A DNA stretch of 64,000 nt from Mustelus asterias (taxonomy: Eukaryota), in assembly GCF_964213995.1 (NCBI RefSeq), contig NC_135807.1, positions 121,830,001-121,894,000 of the forward strand, in the 5' to 3' direction. The notes beneath the pieces were generated by a model that saw only the letters and a program-made list of their open reading frames with translations, was not told the origin of the DNA and did no database searches. This document shows positions 4,333 to 49,659 of the stretch, in pieces. How positions within the stretch are numbered: position 1 is the stretch's first letter; the number at the start of each line of letters is the position of its first letter. Both the position numbers and the translations under genes were made by a program.

Positions 4333-4712
4333 GACCTTACCAAAAGCCTTCGGAAAATCCAAATGCACCACATCTGCTGGCTTCCCCTCATCTGACTATC
4401 AGGTTTCCCCCCCCCCCCCATCATAAATCCATATCCGGAATATACCACCCAGGCCCTCCCCTCTGCCTTATTCCTGTAACCCCACACATTTATCATGGCC
4501 AACCCACCTAACTTGCACATCTTTGGCCACTAAGATTCTGCCCAATAATTTCTAAGTGTTTTTTTTAAAAAAATTCATTCGTGGGACATGGGCATCGCTG
4601 GCTGGTCAGCATTTATTGTGTGGAGATGCCGGCGTTGGACTGGGGTAAACACAGCAAGAAGTTTAACAACACCAGGTTAAAGTCCAACAGGTTTATTTGG
4701 TAGCAAAAGCCA

Positions 4713-4749
4713 CACAAGCTTTCGGAGCTCTAAGCCCCTTCTTCAGGCG
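4713..4749 (-). ncRNA. Minimal type I hammerhead ribozyme motif (Penelope pLTR)
   Basis: CGC-CUGAAGA-A-GGGGCU UAG AGCUCC-GAAA-GC-UU-GUG on the minus strand. Confidence 0.75.
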
Positions 4750-5630
4750 AGTGGGAATTCTGTTCACAAACAGAGCTTATAAAGACACAGACTCAATTTA
4801 CATGAATAATGGTTGGAATGCGAATACTTACAACTAATCAAGTCTTTAAGAAACGAAACAATGTGAGTGGAGAGAGCATCAAGACAGGCTAAAAAGATGT
4901 GTATTGTCTCCAGACAAGACAGCCAGCAAAACTCTGCAGGTCCACGCAACTGTGGGAGTTACAAATAGTGTGACATGAACCCAATATCCCGGTTGAGGCC
5001 GTCCTCGTGTGTGCAGAACTTGACTATCAGTTTCTGCTCAGCGACTCTGCGCTGTGTCGCGAAGGCCGCCTTGGAGAACGCTTACCCGAATATCAGAGGC
5101 CGAATGCCCGTGACCGCTGAAGTGCTCCCCAACAGGAAGAGAACAGTCTTGCCTGGTGATTGTCGAGCGGTGTTCATTCACCTGCGACAACGGATGAATG
5201 AACACCGCTCGACAATCACCAGGCAAGACTGTTCTCTTCCTGTTGGGGAACACTTCAGCGGTCACGGGCATTCGGCCTCTGATATTCAGGTAAGCGTTCT
5301 CCAAGGCGGCCTTCGCGACACACGACAGCGCAGAGTCGCTGAGCAGAAACTGATAGCCAAGTTCTGCACACACGAGGACGGCCTCAACCGGGATATTGGG
5401 TTCATGTCACACTATTTGTAACTCCCACAGTTGCGTGGACCTGCAGAGTTTCACTGGCTGTCTTGTCTGGAGACAATACACATCTTTTTAGCCTGTCTTG
5501 ATGCTCTCTCCACTCACATTGTTTCGTTTCTTAAAGACTTGATTAGTTGCAAGTATTCGCATTCCAACCATTATTCATGTAAATTGAGTCTGTGTCTTTA
5601 TAAGCTCTGTTTGTGAACAGAATTCCCACT

Positions 5631-5667
5631 CACCTGAAGAAGGGGCTTAGAGCTCCGAAAGCTTGTG
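5631..5667 (+). ncRNA. Minimal type I hammerhead ribozyme motif (Penelope pLTR)
   Basis: CAC-CUGAAGA-A-GGGGCU UAG AGCUCC-GAAA-GC-UU-GUG. Core intact, with palindromic AAGCUU at stem III. Confidence 0.8.
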
Positions 5668-8089
5668 TGGCTTTTGCTACCAAATAAACCTGTTGGACTT
5701 TAACCTGGTGTTGTTAAACTTCTTACAGCATTTATTGCCCATCCCTAGTTGCCTCAAGAAGGTGGTGGTGAGCTGCTTCTTGAGTCGCTGCAGTCCACGT
5801 GCTGTGGGTTGACCCACAATGCCACAAGGGAAGGAGCTAGACAGCTCTCCCAATTTTGGCACTCGCCCCCAGATGTTAGTAAGGAGGGCTTTGCAAGGTC
5901 AACAGGGCCTGTTTCACTTCTTTGTTGAGACTTGGTAGCGATTGATTCAACTGAGTGACTCACTTGGCTATTTCAGAGGGCAGTTGAGAGCCAACCACAA
6001 TGCTGTGGCTCTCGAGTCACATGTAGGCCAGACCACGTAAGGAGGGCAGACTTCCTTCCCTAAAAGGACATTAGTGAGTTTCATAATAGATTTAATCATT
6101 TTCTCTACTGGTGTCAGACCAATAGGTTTGTAGTAACATTTTTTTCCCCCCATCCCTCTTTTCTTATTAGTGGGGTTACATTCCAAAATCCAAAGAACAT
6201 TGGAAAATGACCATGAACGAATCTACTATCTCCACAGCCTCTTTCAATCCTCTGCGACGTTGATTGTTCGGTCCAGAGGATTTTTCACGTTTCAGTCCCT
6301 TTCCCCAGTACTACCAAGGTTCACTAGGTTGATCTCTGGATTGAGGAGTTTGGCCTGAAGAGATGCTAAGTAAAATGGGCCTACAATCACCTGAAGTTTA
6401 GAAGAATGAGGGGGTTCTTATTGAAATATATAAAAATCCTGAGGGATTGACAGTTTAGATCCAGAGGTGTTAGTCACTGGTGGAGAGAATTTCTCAGAAG
6501 ATAAATCTTTGGAGTTCCAGCAGACTGTGGATACTCAGTTCTCAAGGTGGAATTTTTCCTTCTACCTTCTGGATTCCACACTCAGTATTCTATCCTTCTG
6601 CAAATGCAATCAAATATATTTTCCCAGCAACTAACAAATGGCAACTTTAATTTCTTTCATATCAGATTGTTACAGCTCTGCCGAAAACTGCCTGTTTTGG
6701 TTCTCAGGCCCCTTACCATTTTGAATTTCATTTGTCACCTACCGATCCAATTTCCTGGAAGGATTATCCTTCCAAATCCAATCACGCACATTAAGTTGCA
6801 TTGCTTCAGTTTTTAAAACCAGAGCTTTTACTCAACTCATCTAAAAGGAAGAAGAGATGATCTTATTGAAACATGCAAAAGATCTGAGGAGACTTGATAG
6901 GGTGGTTACCAGAAGATGTTTCCTCTTGTGGTGGAGAGTTTATGGGATCTCCCATTTATGACAGAAATTAAGAGAATTTTATTTACCAGAGGGTCATTAG
7001 TCTGGAATTCTGATCCCTAAATAGTAGTGGATGCTAGGTCAAGAATTTGGTCAAGGCTGCATGAAACGTGCACGCAGGTGTGGGGGGGGGGGGGGGGGGG
7101 GAGGAGAGAGAGAGAAAGGGGACCATACCAAATTCCACTTTGAGAACTGAGCATCCACAGTTTGCCCATGATCTTATCGAATGGCAAAGCAAGCCTAAAA
7201 AGGGCTACTCCCATGTCCCCTATCTGCTGATGTGGCACTGTCAAATTTTGCTTGATGGTACTCATGTGAGGCAGCTTGAAATGCTGAACTAAATAAAAAG
7301 GCCCTATATGTATGCAAATTGCAGTTCCAATCTCCCTTTATCCACATGCTTCATTCATCTATCCATTCTAAACATTGACAGTTTTTGCCTCAGACATTAA
7401 CTCTGGAAACAAATTCCGCAGCGTCACAACCAAACAGAAAATCCTAAAAGGGGTTCAACAAGCAAATGAAAATACATTTAAGTATGGTACTTTGCACTGC
7501 CACACTCCAACTATAAAACATTCAGAACAAAGGAAACAAAAATTGCTCACTTTAAATGAAGACCCAGAAAAGAGAATTCAGAGTCAAGCTAAGAATCAAA
7601 ATCCAATGAACGTTATTTCAGTCTTCACTAGTTGCCCCCTGCCCCACTTCTTTGCAAAGAGGTAGAATATCATGCTCCAAATGCAGGTTTTCACCAAGGT
7701 GACTGTTTTCCCCCCCTCACAACCAAGGTGTACACACAGAAGTTAGAAACCACTGCACAGTACACACACACACTTTAGAAACCACTTTAGCCCCTTTCCA
7801 GTAAAGCCATTAGTCAATAACTCAGTCCTTAAAAAAAGTAGTTCACCCCCGAGAAACGTGTTTCCTCTCCTTTCCCCGCGATTGCTCAAGTCCAAACCAC
7901 CACTCGAACTGGTGGCGGGAAGTCACTTTCCACCTCGCATTCAAAATGGATTCAAAAGGAGGCAAGAGAGAAATTTAGGAAGTAAGAGCTGGGGAGACGT
8001 GCAGCTGGGCCATGAGAGAGAAGGCGGTGGAAGGGAGGACAGGGGGAATTAGATTAACCACCATTTCAGCCACAGGAACACAGGGTACT

Positions 8090-8420
8090 TACACAAACTG
8101 GCGCAGGAGGAACGGTCAGCAGCACTTTAAATATAGACCCTCCTGTCAAACGGAGCCCACATTACTCTCTGTTCCGCTGGCTATCTGTGTGTCCCCACCA
8201 TTGATCCGTCTCTCTGCTCCCTGGCTGATTGAGCGCTTCTCTCTCGCGCTCCGCCGTTCGAATTTCGTATCCAAAATCCTGATTTGTCGGTCGGAGCAGC
8301 CAATCAGCGGCCGCCTTACTGTCCCTGGGCCGACCGGAAGTTCCGCTGCCAACTCGCGCGAGCCTCGAGCCTTTCCTTCCAGTCGTTTCTAGGGAAGGGG
8401 CGAGCGAGGGAGCGCAGCGG
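8090..8420 (+). promoter_or_regulatory. POLR2K: POLR2K CpG-island promoter and non-coding exon 1 (ends 8420)
   Basis: CpG-rich; CCAAT near 8300; ETS site CCGGAAGT at 8334-8341; donor CGG|GTAAGT at 8420/8421. Confidence 0.8.
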
Positions 8421-14194: not shown

Positions 14195-14255
14195 ATGGAT
14201 GCGCAGAAGGACTTGCAGCCTCCGAAACAACAACCCATGGTCTATATTTGTGGAG
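14195..14255 (+). CDS. POLR2K: RNA polymerase I/II/III subunit RPABC4 (RPB12), coding exon 1 (exon starts 14169)
   Basis: [20 protein letters not shown]; acceptor tctttcag|, donor GAG|GTAATA. Confidence 0.97.
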
Positions 14256-19330: not shown

Positions 19331-19744
19331 TCCTCAAAAAGAGGCAAGAAGAGGTGAAGAAATGATCAAAGATACTTCTTGTCAAGCAGCTAAAGTAATA
19401 GAGTTACTCTATTTTAGAGAAGAAATATTGGCACTGTTCATCTTTGCTGCCCTCTCGCTCACATCTTTTCTATTGCTTGCTGATCAGAATGTTAATGGGA
19501 GCTACATTGAGGAAAGTGATTTGTGGAAGAAAATTTAAAATACAATATCTTAAACTAGTTTGGTGAGCTTGAAAAACTCTTGATGGAAAGTTATTTAAAA
19601 TGCCAAACATGCATACACTTTTTTTAGCTGTCAGAATAGTCAGTGCGTTATCTCTACGTTAAAACAAATTGTTTTTTCCAATTTAACTATAATTTGACTG
19701 GGAGCTTGGTACAGCAGATGGTGTTAACTGGGATACTAAATAGA

Positions 19745-20506
19745 AAGAAGTCTCACAACACCAGGTTAAAGATCAACAGGTTTATTTGGTAGCACAAGCC
19801 ACTGGCTTTCAGAGCGCTGCTCCTTCATCAGGTGAGTGGGAGTTCTGTTCACAAACAGGACACATAAAGACACAAACTCAATTTACAAAATAATGGTTGG
19901 AATGCAAGTCTTTACAGGTAATCAAGTCTTAAAGGTACAGACAATGTGAATGGAGAGTGGGTTAAGCACAGGTTATTGTCTGCAACCAGGACAGTTAGTG
20001 AGATTTTGCAAACCCAGGCAAGTCGTGGGGGTTACAGATAGTGTGACATGAACCCAAGATCCCGACACACGACAACGCAGAATCGCTGAGCAGAAACTGA
20101 TAGCCAAGTTCCACACACATGAGGACGGCCTCAACCAGGATCTTGGGTTCATGTCACACTATCTGTAACCCCCACGACCTGCCTGGGCTTGCAAAATCTC
20201 ACTAACTGTACTGGTTGGAGACAATACACACCTCTTTAACCTGTCCTTAACCCTCTCTCCACTCAGATTGTCTGTACCTTTAAGACTTGATTACCTGTAA
20301 AGACTCGCATTCCAACCAATATTTTGTCAATTGAGTTTGTGTCTTTATATGCCCTACTTGTGAACAGAACTCCCACTCACCTGAGGAAGGAGCAGTACTC
20401 TGAAAGCTTGAGGCTTGTGCTACCAAATAAACCTGTTAGACTTTAACCTGGTGTTGTGAGACGTCATACTGTGCTTACCCCAGTCCAACACCAGCATCTC
20501 CACATC
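19745..20506. mobile_element. Palindromic Penelope-like insertion
   Basis: 19745 to about 20062 is inverted relative to about 20138-20467; tail on the right arm. TSD ATACT(A/G)AATAGA at 19733-19744 and 20507-20518. Hammerhead motifs at 19800-19834 (-) and 20378-20412 (+). Confidence 0.9.
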
Positions 20507-25201: not shown

Positions 25202-25796
25202 ATGTTGAGATACTGGGGTGGGCACAGTAATAAGTCTCACAACACCAGGTTAAAGTCCAACAGATTTATTTGGAATCATGAGCTTTCGGAGCACTGCTCC
25301 TTCCTCAGGTGTGTGGAGAGTTGAGTTTGCAAACATGGCACATATAGACAGACGCAATTGCAAGATAATGGTTGGAACGTGAGTCTGCAGGTACAGACAA
25401 TGCGAGTGACGAGAGGGATAATCACAGATTAAAGAGGTGTGAATTATCTCAAGCCAGGACAGTTAGTAGGATTTTGCAAGCCTAGGCAAAATGGTGGAGG
25501 TTACATGTAGTATGACATGAACCCAAGATCCCGGTTGAGGCAGTCCTCTTGCAAGCGGAAATTGGCTATCAGTTTCTGCTCAGCGATTCTGCGTTGTGTG
25601 TCTTGAAGGCCATCTAGGAGAACACTTACCCAAAGATAGGAGGCTGAATGCCCTTGACTGCTGAAGTGTTCCCTGACAGAAAGGGAACACTCCTGCCTGG
25701 TGATTGTCACGTGGTGTCAGCTCATCCGATGTAGCGTCTGCATGTACCACATCTCAGGACATTCTTTCCTGCAGCGTATGAGGTAGATGCAACCTA
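25202..25796 (-). mobile_element. 5'-truncated Penelope with hammerhead motif (25277-25311)
   Basis: Matches the 3' end of 45903-48846. TSD TTATGT(G/A)GGTTG at 25190-25201 and 25797-25808. Confidence 0.88.
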
Positions 25797-45902: not shown

Positions 45903-48846
45903 CATATCGCATATCGCGCATATCAACACAGACATCAAGTTTCTACAAAGATGCAAGAAAGCAGACAAGATACCGAAAGGACTACAGATCACGAACCCAC
46001 TCAGGTCAACCTATAACACAGACTACGCTGAGAGACTGTGCCGTCGCACCTCTCTCACACTCCTCAACCACCTCATACACCAGCTCTACAGCAAACACCG
46101 CAGCCTGGAAACCAAGATAGAATCCACATTCTCAACTTGCATTCAGGACGCAGACCAGCTGCGAAACTCTGCCAAGCAGACGAGACAAAGGAACTACACC
46201 ATCTACATGCACACCAAGAACAGGAAACTTGAGAAACTCGGCATCACCACCAGCAGCAACCAAGCCTCCCCTGATACCACAGTAGAAAACAGTACCACTA
46301 CAGGGAAGTCCATTGTCAACTTGTCGGACTACACACTTCAACCAGATGAAATCGAAGTTCTCAGCCGAGGGCTCCATTTTTGCCCCACCACCAAAATAGA
46401 CCCCATCAGTCTCGCAGCAGACACAGAGGAATTCATCAGACGAATGAGGCTGTGGGAGTTCTTCCACAAACCCCAAAAGGCCAACAGCGAACACAATGAG
46501 ACAGCCAATGAACCGGAACAGCCGACAGAGAGATCCGCAGTGCATCCGAAGAGGAAAGAGTCGAATTGGACTTCTCCGGAAGGCTGCTGCCCTCGACTTG
46601 ACATGTATGCCCAAGCCATCAGGAGGTGCGTCAACACCAAATTCATCAGCCACACTCACAAGACAGCCCCGAACATCACCCAAGCACAATGCAACACTAT
46701 CCGCGCTCTCAAGACCAACCGCAACATTGTCATCAAACCAGCAGACAAAGGAGGAGCCATCGTCATACTGAACAGAACGGATTACTGCAAAGAAGTGTAC
46801 CGACAACTGAACAACGAGGAACACTACAGACAGTTACCCGCAGATCCGACCAAAGAACACACCCGTCAACTCAACACTCTGATCAAGACCTTTGATCCGG
46901 ACCTTCAGAACACCCTCCGTGCTCCCATCCCACGTACTCCCCGCGTTGGAGATCTCTACTGCCTCCCGAAGATACACAAGGCAAACACATCCGGCCGTCC
47001 CATCGTATCGGGCAATGGGACTCTGTGCGAGAACCTCTCCGGTTATGTCGAGGGCATCCTGAAACTCATTGTACAAAGAAACCCCAGCTTTTGTCGCGAC
47101 ACTACGGACTTCCTACAGAAACTCAGCACACATGGAGCAGTTGAACCAGGAGCACTCCTCGTCACAATGGATGTCTCGGCACTCTACACCAGCATCCCCC
47201 ACGACGATGGCATTGCTGCAACTGCCTCAGTACTCAACGCCGACAACTGCCAGTCTCCAAATGCAATTTTACAACTCATCCGCTTCATCCTGGACCACAA
47301 TGTCTTCACCTTCAACAACCAGTTCTTCATCCAGACACACGGAACAGCCATGAGGACAAAATTCGCACCTCAATATGCCAACATCTTCATGCACAGGTTC
47401 GAACAAGACTTCACCACACAGGACCTCCAACTGATGCTATACACTAGATACATTGATGACATTTTCTTCCTTTGGACTCATGGTGAACAATCACCGAAAC
47501 AACTATATGATGACATCAACAAGTTCCATCCCACCATCAGACTCACCATGGACTACTCTCTGGAATTGGTTGCATTCTTGGACACACGCATCTCCATTAA
47601 GGACGGTCACCTCAGCACCTCACTGTACTGCAAGCCCACAGATAACCTCACGATGCTCCACTTCTCCAGCTTCCACCCTAAACACGTTAAAGAAGCCATC
47701 CCCTACGGACAAGCCCTCCATATACACAGGATCTGCTCAGATGAGGAGGATCACAACAGACACCTCCAGACGCTGAAAGATGCCCTCATAAGAACAGGAT
47801 ATGGCGCTCGACTCATCAATCGACAGTTCCGACGCGCCACAGCGAAAAACCGCACCGACCTCCTCAGAAGACAAACTCGGAACACGGTGGACAGAGTACT
47901 CTTCGTCGTCAGTACTTCTCCAGAGCGGAGAAGCTACGACATCTCCTCCGGAGCCTTCAACATGTCATTGATGAAGACGAACATCTCGCCAAGGCCATCC
48001 CCACACCCCCACTTCTTGCCTTCAAACAGCCGCACAACCTCAAACAGACCATTGTCCGCAGCAAACTACCCAGCCTTCAGGAGAACAGTAACCACGACAC
48101 CACACAACCCTGCCACAGCAACCTCTGCAAGATGTGCCGGATCATCGACATGGATGCCATCATCTCACGTGAGAATACCATCCACCAGGTACACGGTACA
48201 TACACTTGCAACTCGGCCAACGTTGTCTACCTGATAAGCTGCAGGAAAGGATGTCCGGAGGCATGGTACATTGGGGAAACCATGCAGACGCTATGACAAC
48301 GGATGAATGAACACCGCTCGACAATCACCAGGCAAGAGTGTTCTCCTCCTGTTGGGGAGCACTTCAGCAGTCACGGGCATTCAGCCTCTAATCTTTGGGT
48401 AAGTGTTCTCCAAGGCGGCCTTCACGACACACGACACCGCAGGGTCGCTGAGCAGAAACTGATAGCCAAGTTCCGCACACATGAGGACGGCCTCAACCGG
48501 GATCTTGTGTTCATGTCACACTATCTGTCACCCCCACAACTTGCCTGGACTTGCAAAATCTCACTAGCTGTCCTGTCTGGAGACAATACACATCTCTTTA
48601 ACCTGTGCTTAATGCTCTCTCCACTCACATTGTCTGTACCTTTAAGACTTGATTAGCTGTATTAGCATTGATTAGCATTCCAATCATTGTTCTGTAAATT
48701 GAGTTTGTGTCTCTGTATGCCCTGTTTGTGAGCACATCTCCCACTCCACCTGACGAAGGGGCAGCGCTCCGAAAGCTAGTGGCATTTGCTACCAAATAAA
48801 CCTGTTGGACTTTAACCTGGTGTTGTCAGACTTCTTACTGTGTTTA
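45903..48846 (+). mobile_element. Near full-length Penelope-like retrotransposon (RT + GIY-YIG), disabled
   Basis: IKPADKGG, YCLPKIHK, MDVSALYTSIP, RYIDDIF. Frameshift near 47910 and an in-frame TGA near 48294 in the GIY-YIG region (NVVYLISC..WYIGET). TSD CAACATTTGCA at 45892-45902 and 48847-48857. Confidence 0.95.
48746..48782 (+). ncRNA. Minimal type I hammerhead ribozyme motif, intact core
   Basis: CCAC-CUGACGA-A-GGGGC AGC GCUCC-GAAA-GC-UA^GUGG. Confidence 0.82.
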
Positions 48847-49659
48847 CAACATTTGCAGGAGCAGTAGACATTTGACTGCCACAAAACTGCTGTGCCATTC
48901 ATTAAGATCATAGCTGATCTGACCATGGCCTCAACTCCACTTTCCTGCATGTCCCCCATAACATGTGGCTCCCTTGCAGATTAAAAATCTGTTTAAGCCA
49001 GTCTTGAATCTGTCGAATACTTCATTATTTCTTTTTAAGTTTCTCGATGATTTGACGTTGTAATATCACTTCACTGTCATGTTTTAGTTGAAAATCACTG
49101 AATTGATGTAATCTTCCAGTCGCCACATTATAATTCTGCTGTAAAAACCCTTGAAAGTATTACGCCTTGTCAAATAAGATGAAGCCTTGTCTATAACAGT
49201 GTACTAAATCACAATTAATGCTAACTAACCTTTCCAGCCCTGAAAAAATAATTTTATGTATGTGGAATGTCAAATTTTGCCATTCCATGATAAAACTTCC
49301 AAGATTTTTAAATTAATAAAGTTTGTTATGATATGAGCTTCAATGATAATACCATGTGCATGTCCTGACCTTTAATTCACTTTATATAAAATTATAAAAA
49401 GTAAATGACTAGATCCACTTGTAACTTCCAGATTTGCTATCTGAGAACTTTTCAATTTGGCCGTTGGAAAACATCATCTGATACTTGATGGCATAACTTT
49501 TGCAGGAAAATCTCCAATAGCTTGTGTCAGAATAGAGACAACATCAGGAAAGAGGAAATAATAAAAACCCTGAATATAGGAGGAGTATGTCATGAGTTCT
49601 TTGAGCCTACTGATATTTTGCCTCAAATCCACCTTTTCACACTCATCCATGCACCTCCA

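Follow-up and report, generated by a model that had tools for sequence, protein, structure and literature searches.

A head-to-head pair of Penelope-like 3′ ends with hammerhead-like cores in Mustelus asterias, probably a target-built copy of an abundant endonuclease-bearing family

Background

In the available parts of PMC8557442 and PMC3846280, EN+ Penelope-like element (PLE) insertions are described in which an inverted, 5′-truncated copy is accompanied by a one-sided tail of 30–40 bp and a TSD; the accessible text of PMC3846280 also reports head-to-head junction palindromes, and that of PMC8557442 calls the origin of tandem and inverted PLE structures undefined. siRNAs matching inverted regions of Penelope have been reported as well (available portion of PMC3681739). 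Minimal hammerhead ribozymes (min-HHRs) of metazoan PLEs include, according to the accessible sections of PMC4209133, dual motifs on opposite strands at distances of 100–700 bp; these motifs need a direct tandem partner, low cleavage being described for direct dimers and no cleavage having been found for the monomer. Retrozymes, in turn, need direct tandem units or LTRs (available text of bioRxiv 10.64898/2026.07.22.740005). For PAc, a Poseidon-clade PLE of Anolis, the Penelope protein was found to cut and extend both target strands, the tail being flanked by two RT start sites, and the start sites seen did not differ between the strands; the hammerhead is dispensable for insertion in vitro, and head-to-head products are not addressed in that paper (PMC11167929). 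The literature already covers head-to-head inverted copies, one-sided tails, TSDs, hammerheads on opposite strands and siRNA derived from such repeats.

Structure of the insert

The locus under study lies in a 64-kb stretch of M. asterias DNA, referred to as the window. The original prediction of a 1.1-kb palindrome bounded by an exact 12-bp TSD was confirmed, the features being as follows:

4607..4618, + strand: left TSD, within an abundant older host repeat
4619–5725: insert of 1107 bp, between the two 12-bp TSD copies
4619..5180, − strand: left arm, a 5′-truncated Penelope 3′ end
4619..4653, − strand: 35-nt Penelope “tail”, left arm only, absent from the original prediction
4692..4697, − strand: AATAAA of the left arm, read from the sequence
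4716..4746, − strand: putative minimal type I hammerhead core, left arm, by the pattern given in the available text of PMC4209133
5181..5194, + strand: head-to-head junction, unique in the genome
5182..5725, + strand: right arm, a 5′-truncated Penelope 3′ end without tail
5182–5418, + strand: last 79 aa of the element protein, right arm
5634..5664, + strand: putative minimal type I hammerhead core, right arm (CUGAAGA, stem II, GAAA-GC-UU)
5683..5688, + strand: AATAAA of the right arm, 18 nt past the predicted cut after 5664
5726..5737, + strand: right TSD, where the host repeat picks up again

The TSD, CAGCATTTATTG, is identical in both copies (4607–4618 and 5726–5737), and the older host repeat that was split by the insertion is represented genome-wide by 13,822 exact empty-site 28-mers. 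The left arm consists of a GIY-YIG C-terminal coding remnant with a 5-nt deletion, the 3′ UTR/pLTR, and the tail, which in full-length copies runs into the ORF start codon. Alignment of 4656–5180 (−) with 5195–5724 (+) comprises 530 columns with 97.7% identity, the differences being 8 substitutions and one 5-nt indel. A 14-nt loop had been described at the centre of the palindrome; it is present (5181–5194), but it is not a designed spacer, as it consists of one extra C followed by 13 nt from the regular sequence of the element, present in the right arm only. The junction of the insert has one inserted nucleotide and lacks microhomology, which counts against the explanation favoured below.

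A fold-back of this kind might arise as an artefact of assembly, and among the contig matches listed in five runs, no piece bridges the junction, a hole which by itself proves nothing. However, the differences between the arms, the asymmetric ends, the perfect TSD and the existence of thousands of like loci make such an artefact extremely unlikely.

The insert resembles the complex EN+ PLE insertions described in the accessible parts of PMC8557442 and PMC3846280 in its head-to-head arrangement with an inverted 5′-truncated copy, in the tail at one end only and in the short TSD around the unit; junction palindromes, known from those insertions, are found in its relatives, and the parent element likewise combines RT with a C-terminal GIY-YIG domain. 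As far as those sources describe them, it differs in that its two halves are short and of almost the same length, which gives the insert the look of a clean hairpin, and in the size of the TSD, which is 12–14 bp here as compared to 8–10 bp in the rotifer examples. With PAc (PMC11167929) the family shares the position of the tail between two RT start sites and an AT-rich target of which both strands would be cut and extended, whereas the PAc ORF starts inside the hammerhead and the ATG follows the tail in the element described here.

Parent element and abundance of the family

Of the 79 residues encoded in the right arm, 77 match the end of an open frame of 903 codons at another place in the genome (a frame of this length, likewise open, was noted at locus L133). 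The parent frame shows RVT_1 domain matches (E values of 8e-10 and 2e-9) and, at the C terminus, a GIY-YIG match, which is weak (E value of 5e-4) and below the curated Pfam cut-off; RT with C-terminal GIY-YIG is the domain order of EN+ Penelope-like elements. An autonomous relative in this genome is the complete unit at 68351100–68361000 of contig C19 (G000; L134), whose 892-aa ORF (RT and GIY-YIG) is open; a pLTR, the tail, the ATG and the ORF are followed there by a pLTR that lacks the tail and by a tailed, inverted copy of 2.6 kb. The pLTR of this full-length copy thus occurs in partial tandem, as in EN+ Penelope-like elements.

The hammerhead 32-mer is present in 4,641 exact copies in the genome, and the 24-mer of the tail in 77,470. 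A Penelope origin and a single insertion event, both proposed for this locus before, are supported, and we are confident that the insert is a 5′-truncated copy of an abundant endonuclease-bearing Penelope-like retroelement, with a typical layout and likely built once at its target, not copied from another palindrome. On this reading it is an integration product of an already described kind, among many thousands of such insertions.

Hammerhead motifs and predicted RNA structure

A hammerhead-like core and an AATAAA signal in each arm, as previously claimed, were both located, the former by pattern and the latter by sequence. The putative ribozyme shares with the min-HHRs of metazoan PLE pLTRs, as far as these are described in the available text of PMC4209133, the CUGANGA motif, the extra base before stem II, the GAAA and the palindromic 15.2–16.2 positions, and it lacks helix III; in contrast to the motifs covered there, its triplet is CUU and a distance of about 890 bp separates the two cores. 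The core and stem II are conserved among 258 matches to the min-HHR motif in the loci examined, some of which overlap: GC-U-H occurs in 255 of them, and variants of stem II keep their pairing. A search of the 64-kb window with Rfam at the gathering threshold gave zero matches, so that the min-HHR pattern is the basis on which a ribozyme is called.

According to the original prediction, transcription from either direction would give a rod-like RNA that contains a ribozyme. The rod and the sense core stand: a transcript in either direction carries one sense core, preceded by its own antisense copy. However, the hammerhead is predicted to pair with that antisense copy instead of folding. The calculated penalty for hammerhead folding is 70 and 75 kcal/mol in the rod, compared with 4–7 kcal/mol in a single arm, and the predicted probability of stem II in the rod RNA is <1e-17, which suggests that the hammerhead is sequestered in the fold-back duplex and would be inactive. 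The “ambisense” character is merely the symmetry of a palindrome, since both strands yield the same kind of RNA. In monomer folding, the hammerhead region was no more stable than its shuffles (z of −0.07 to −0.30), and the minimum-energy form in a cofold of two copies was not a dimer ribozyme.

The insert resembles the non-LTR retrozymes of bioRxiv 10.64898/2026.07.22.740005 (available text) in being PLE-derived and non-coding and in its type I hammerhead, but in those a recurring unit is repeated in direct tandem, whereas the insert is an inverted one-off pair. Where a non-LTR retrozyme would have two or more hammerhead units as direct repeats, the insert has inverted copies with one sense core per strand, and where a recurring dispersed unit would be expected, it has a unique junction. 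The type III hammerhead, direct LTRs and 4-bp TSD of LTR retrozymes likewise have no counterpart in the insert, with its type I minimal core, inverted arms and 12-bp TSD.

Fold-backs across the genome

Among the first 100 hammerhead matches, 24 minus/plus pairs with partners no more than 3 kb apart account for 48. Fold-backs account for 16 of the first 23 distinct insertions that carry the exact hammerhead 32-mer; among the remaining ones, two extend beyond the region viewed and one has a complex structure. A gap pattern retrieved 367 fold-backs whose junctions fall within the same zone of approximately 100 nt, and 8,272 short fold-backs were found genome-wide with a single pattern. The fold-back is the main insertion form of this Penelope family.

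One hundred loci were mapped (32 from the hammerhead list, 18 best DNA matches and 50 listed near-junction loci). Since the junction lists hold the first matches only, on contigs C1–C3, the junction counts describe a sample and not a census. The 24-mer spanning the junction of the insert has one exact match in 3.68 Gb. With a tolerance of 2 nt, 81 of the 100 mapped junctions are unique, and the other 19 loci fall into 8 groups. Three of these groups are near-coincidences in which the junction letters differ; the other five are exact recurrences, situated on small inverted repeats of the element. The copies within four of the five exact groups have differing variant sets, and in three of the five the tail is on opposite arms. 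The arms of the remaining pair (L040/L078) are too short to hold variants that could tell them apart. All 49 short fold-backs (50 listed, one dropped because of overlap) differ in spacer length or in arm starts. At the L035/L036 junction, six extra tandem 45-nt repeats of the arm 5′ end were noted, which suggests slippage during joining.

These data bear on the proposal that the palindrome itself is a mobile non-autonomous, retrozyme-like unit, copied via a rod-like RNA. Recurring identical junctions had been named as its hallmark; the junction of the insert is unique and those of its relatives nearly all differ. The few junctions that do recur, in 2–4 copies each and including the inseparable L040/L078 pair, and the presence of cis signals at both ends are in line with mobility, but the differing variants and opposite tails within the exact groups argue against it, as do the predicted sequestration of the ribozyme, the diversity of the short fold-backs and the outer ends, which lie at two fixed start sites and not at random truncation points. 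A class of ambisense-ribozyme elements is therefore unsupported, and mobilization of the palindrome is highly improbable. The recurrent junctions are best read as independent hot-spot events.

End pattern and proposed insertion mechanism

Of the 100 mapped loci, 88 could be classified with respect to their outer ends, and 85 of these have one tailed and one tail-less end; two have no tail, one has two tails, and 12 were unclassed. The same rule is kept by 47 of the 49 short fold-backs. Combined, after removal of two shared loci, it holds for 131 of 135; the four exceptions, at least two of which are complex, comprise three that are tail-less on both sides and one that is tailed on both. A TSD was detected at 82 of the 100 loci, and is 12–14 bp long in 70 of them. 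With the rearranged locus L068 left out, arm lengths were compared at 84 loci: the tail-less arm extends at least 5 nt further at its 5′ end in 37, the insert at 4619–5725 included, and the tailed arm is the longer one in 30.

Rare variants are common to both arms of a locus in 43 cases, compared with 1.5 in permutations (maximum 13; 68 loci), which fits a single donor or gene conversion once the insert was in place. The nearest matches give a less clean picture: the partner arm ranks first in only 40 of the 68 loci, and for the insert at 4619–5725, one other arm is closer than its partner.

Self-priming, as proposed in the accessible text of PMC3846280, would make a fold-back from one cDNA (or an antisense template) that snaps back on a small inverted repeat and serves as its own template for the second arm. 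The shared rare variants are in keeping with such a process, as are junction overlaps of at least 2 nt at 42 of the 100 loci and the position of the recurrent junctions, but the joining of two cDNA ends also needs inverted microhomology. Moreover, a self-copy must sit within the first arm, and at 37 loci, this insert among them, each arm extends beyond the other, so that self-copying of one cDNA cannot explain the arms; as the sole route for these non-nested loci it is excluded. Snap-back may apply to the 30 loci with a longer tailed arm, and it is a sub-variant of the same verdict of an integration by-product. As an overall explanation we consider it quite unlikely.

The one-tail rule together with the non-nested arms points to two separate priming events, one for each target nick, and dual priming is what we infer from these end patterns. 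In the mechanism proposed here, the element endonuclease would nick both target strands 12 nt apart, and the 3′ end of each nick would prime reverse transcription on RNA of the same donor, one priming at the start site at the end of the tail and one at the site lying about 35 nt upstream. The two cDNAs would end early, after approximately 550 nt at this insert, and would then be joined end to end through annealing or repair. The hammerheads and AATAAA signals would be passengers from the pLTR of the element. We lean slightly towards the strict form of this scheme, an obligatory two-ended reaction in which both nicks are primed on the RNA of one donor, always with one start site each, and the cDNAs are joined; since no difference in start site between the strands is seen in PMC11167929, the strict one-of-each rule is left unexplained. 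In the limited set of papers searched, the two-ended priming model was not found stated.

If the model holds, two-ended priming would explain the long-puzzling inverted repeats and one-sided tail of the PLE class. In any case, the one-tail rule and the non-nested arms constrain the mechanism behind tandem and inverted PLE structures. The insert itself is of little weight. What remains of value is the end pattern across the family, through which two-ended priming can be put to a test.

In the short fold-backs, the positions of arm starts relative to the anchor were compared with the hammerhead cut site, a test in which the lengths of long arms are inflated by possible matches of a locus to itself: 4 of 98 arms start 1–2 nt before the anchor, 8 at 3–5 nt, 6 at 6–8 nt and 3 at 9–14 nt. 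In the same set (L175–L224), 24 of the 98 arms have 5′ ends grouped in the region of hammerhead stem I, 38–45 nt upstream of the anchor. The antisense strand at this spot resembles a consensus splice donor.

Target site and neighbouring genes

The target 12-mer of the host repeat acts as a hot spot for insertion: 253 tail ends are located directly after it, whereas 88,172 sites and 77,470 tail ends would lead one to expect about 5, a rough figure because the tail patterns differ in length. Another locus (L071) has the same TSD in opposite orientation. Co-mobilization of the fold-back with the host repeat was ruled out, as the 24 insertions with both arms mapped, out of 30 sampled at this site, all differ in their arm starts.

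A PDB sequence search identified an FBXO43 (Emi2)-like gene to the left of the window on the minus strand (L225/L095); a protein atlas search gave no name for this left-hand gene. Coding exons of POLR2K are located near 14225, 16677 and 20622. The two flanking genes mark the genome as that of a vertebrate. The insert is either intergenic or within a 5′ intron of the FBXO43-like gene. CpG-rich regions were noted at 1.5–2.5 kb and 8–9 kb of the window, and a splice-donor-like site near 8090 on the minus strand.

From its position between the FBXO43-like gene and POLR2K, and with a transcript that would fold to a 525-bp rod, the locus might act as a functional source of dsRNA or siRNA, for which there is a precedent in Drosophila (available portion of PMC3681739). 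However, it is one among thousands of such loci and shows no sign of selection, and dsRNA formation would be a possible side effect and not an origin; we regard a functional role of this kind as unlikely. Irrespective of that, thousands of long hairpins that could form dsRNA are present in the genome, some of them intronic. A second, older Penelope fold-back at 19727–20504, whose junction differs and whose tail is on the right arm, is located in an intron of POLR2K and would form dsRNA in the POLR2K pre-mRNA. Diverged Penelope 3′ ends are also present at 25212–25787 and 48226–48847, sharing 73% and 86% identity, respectively, with the arm of the insert.
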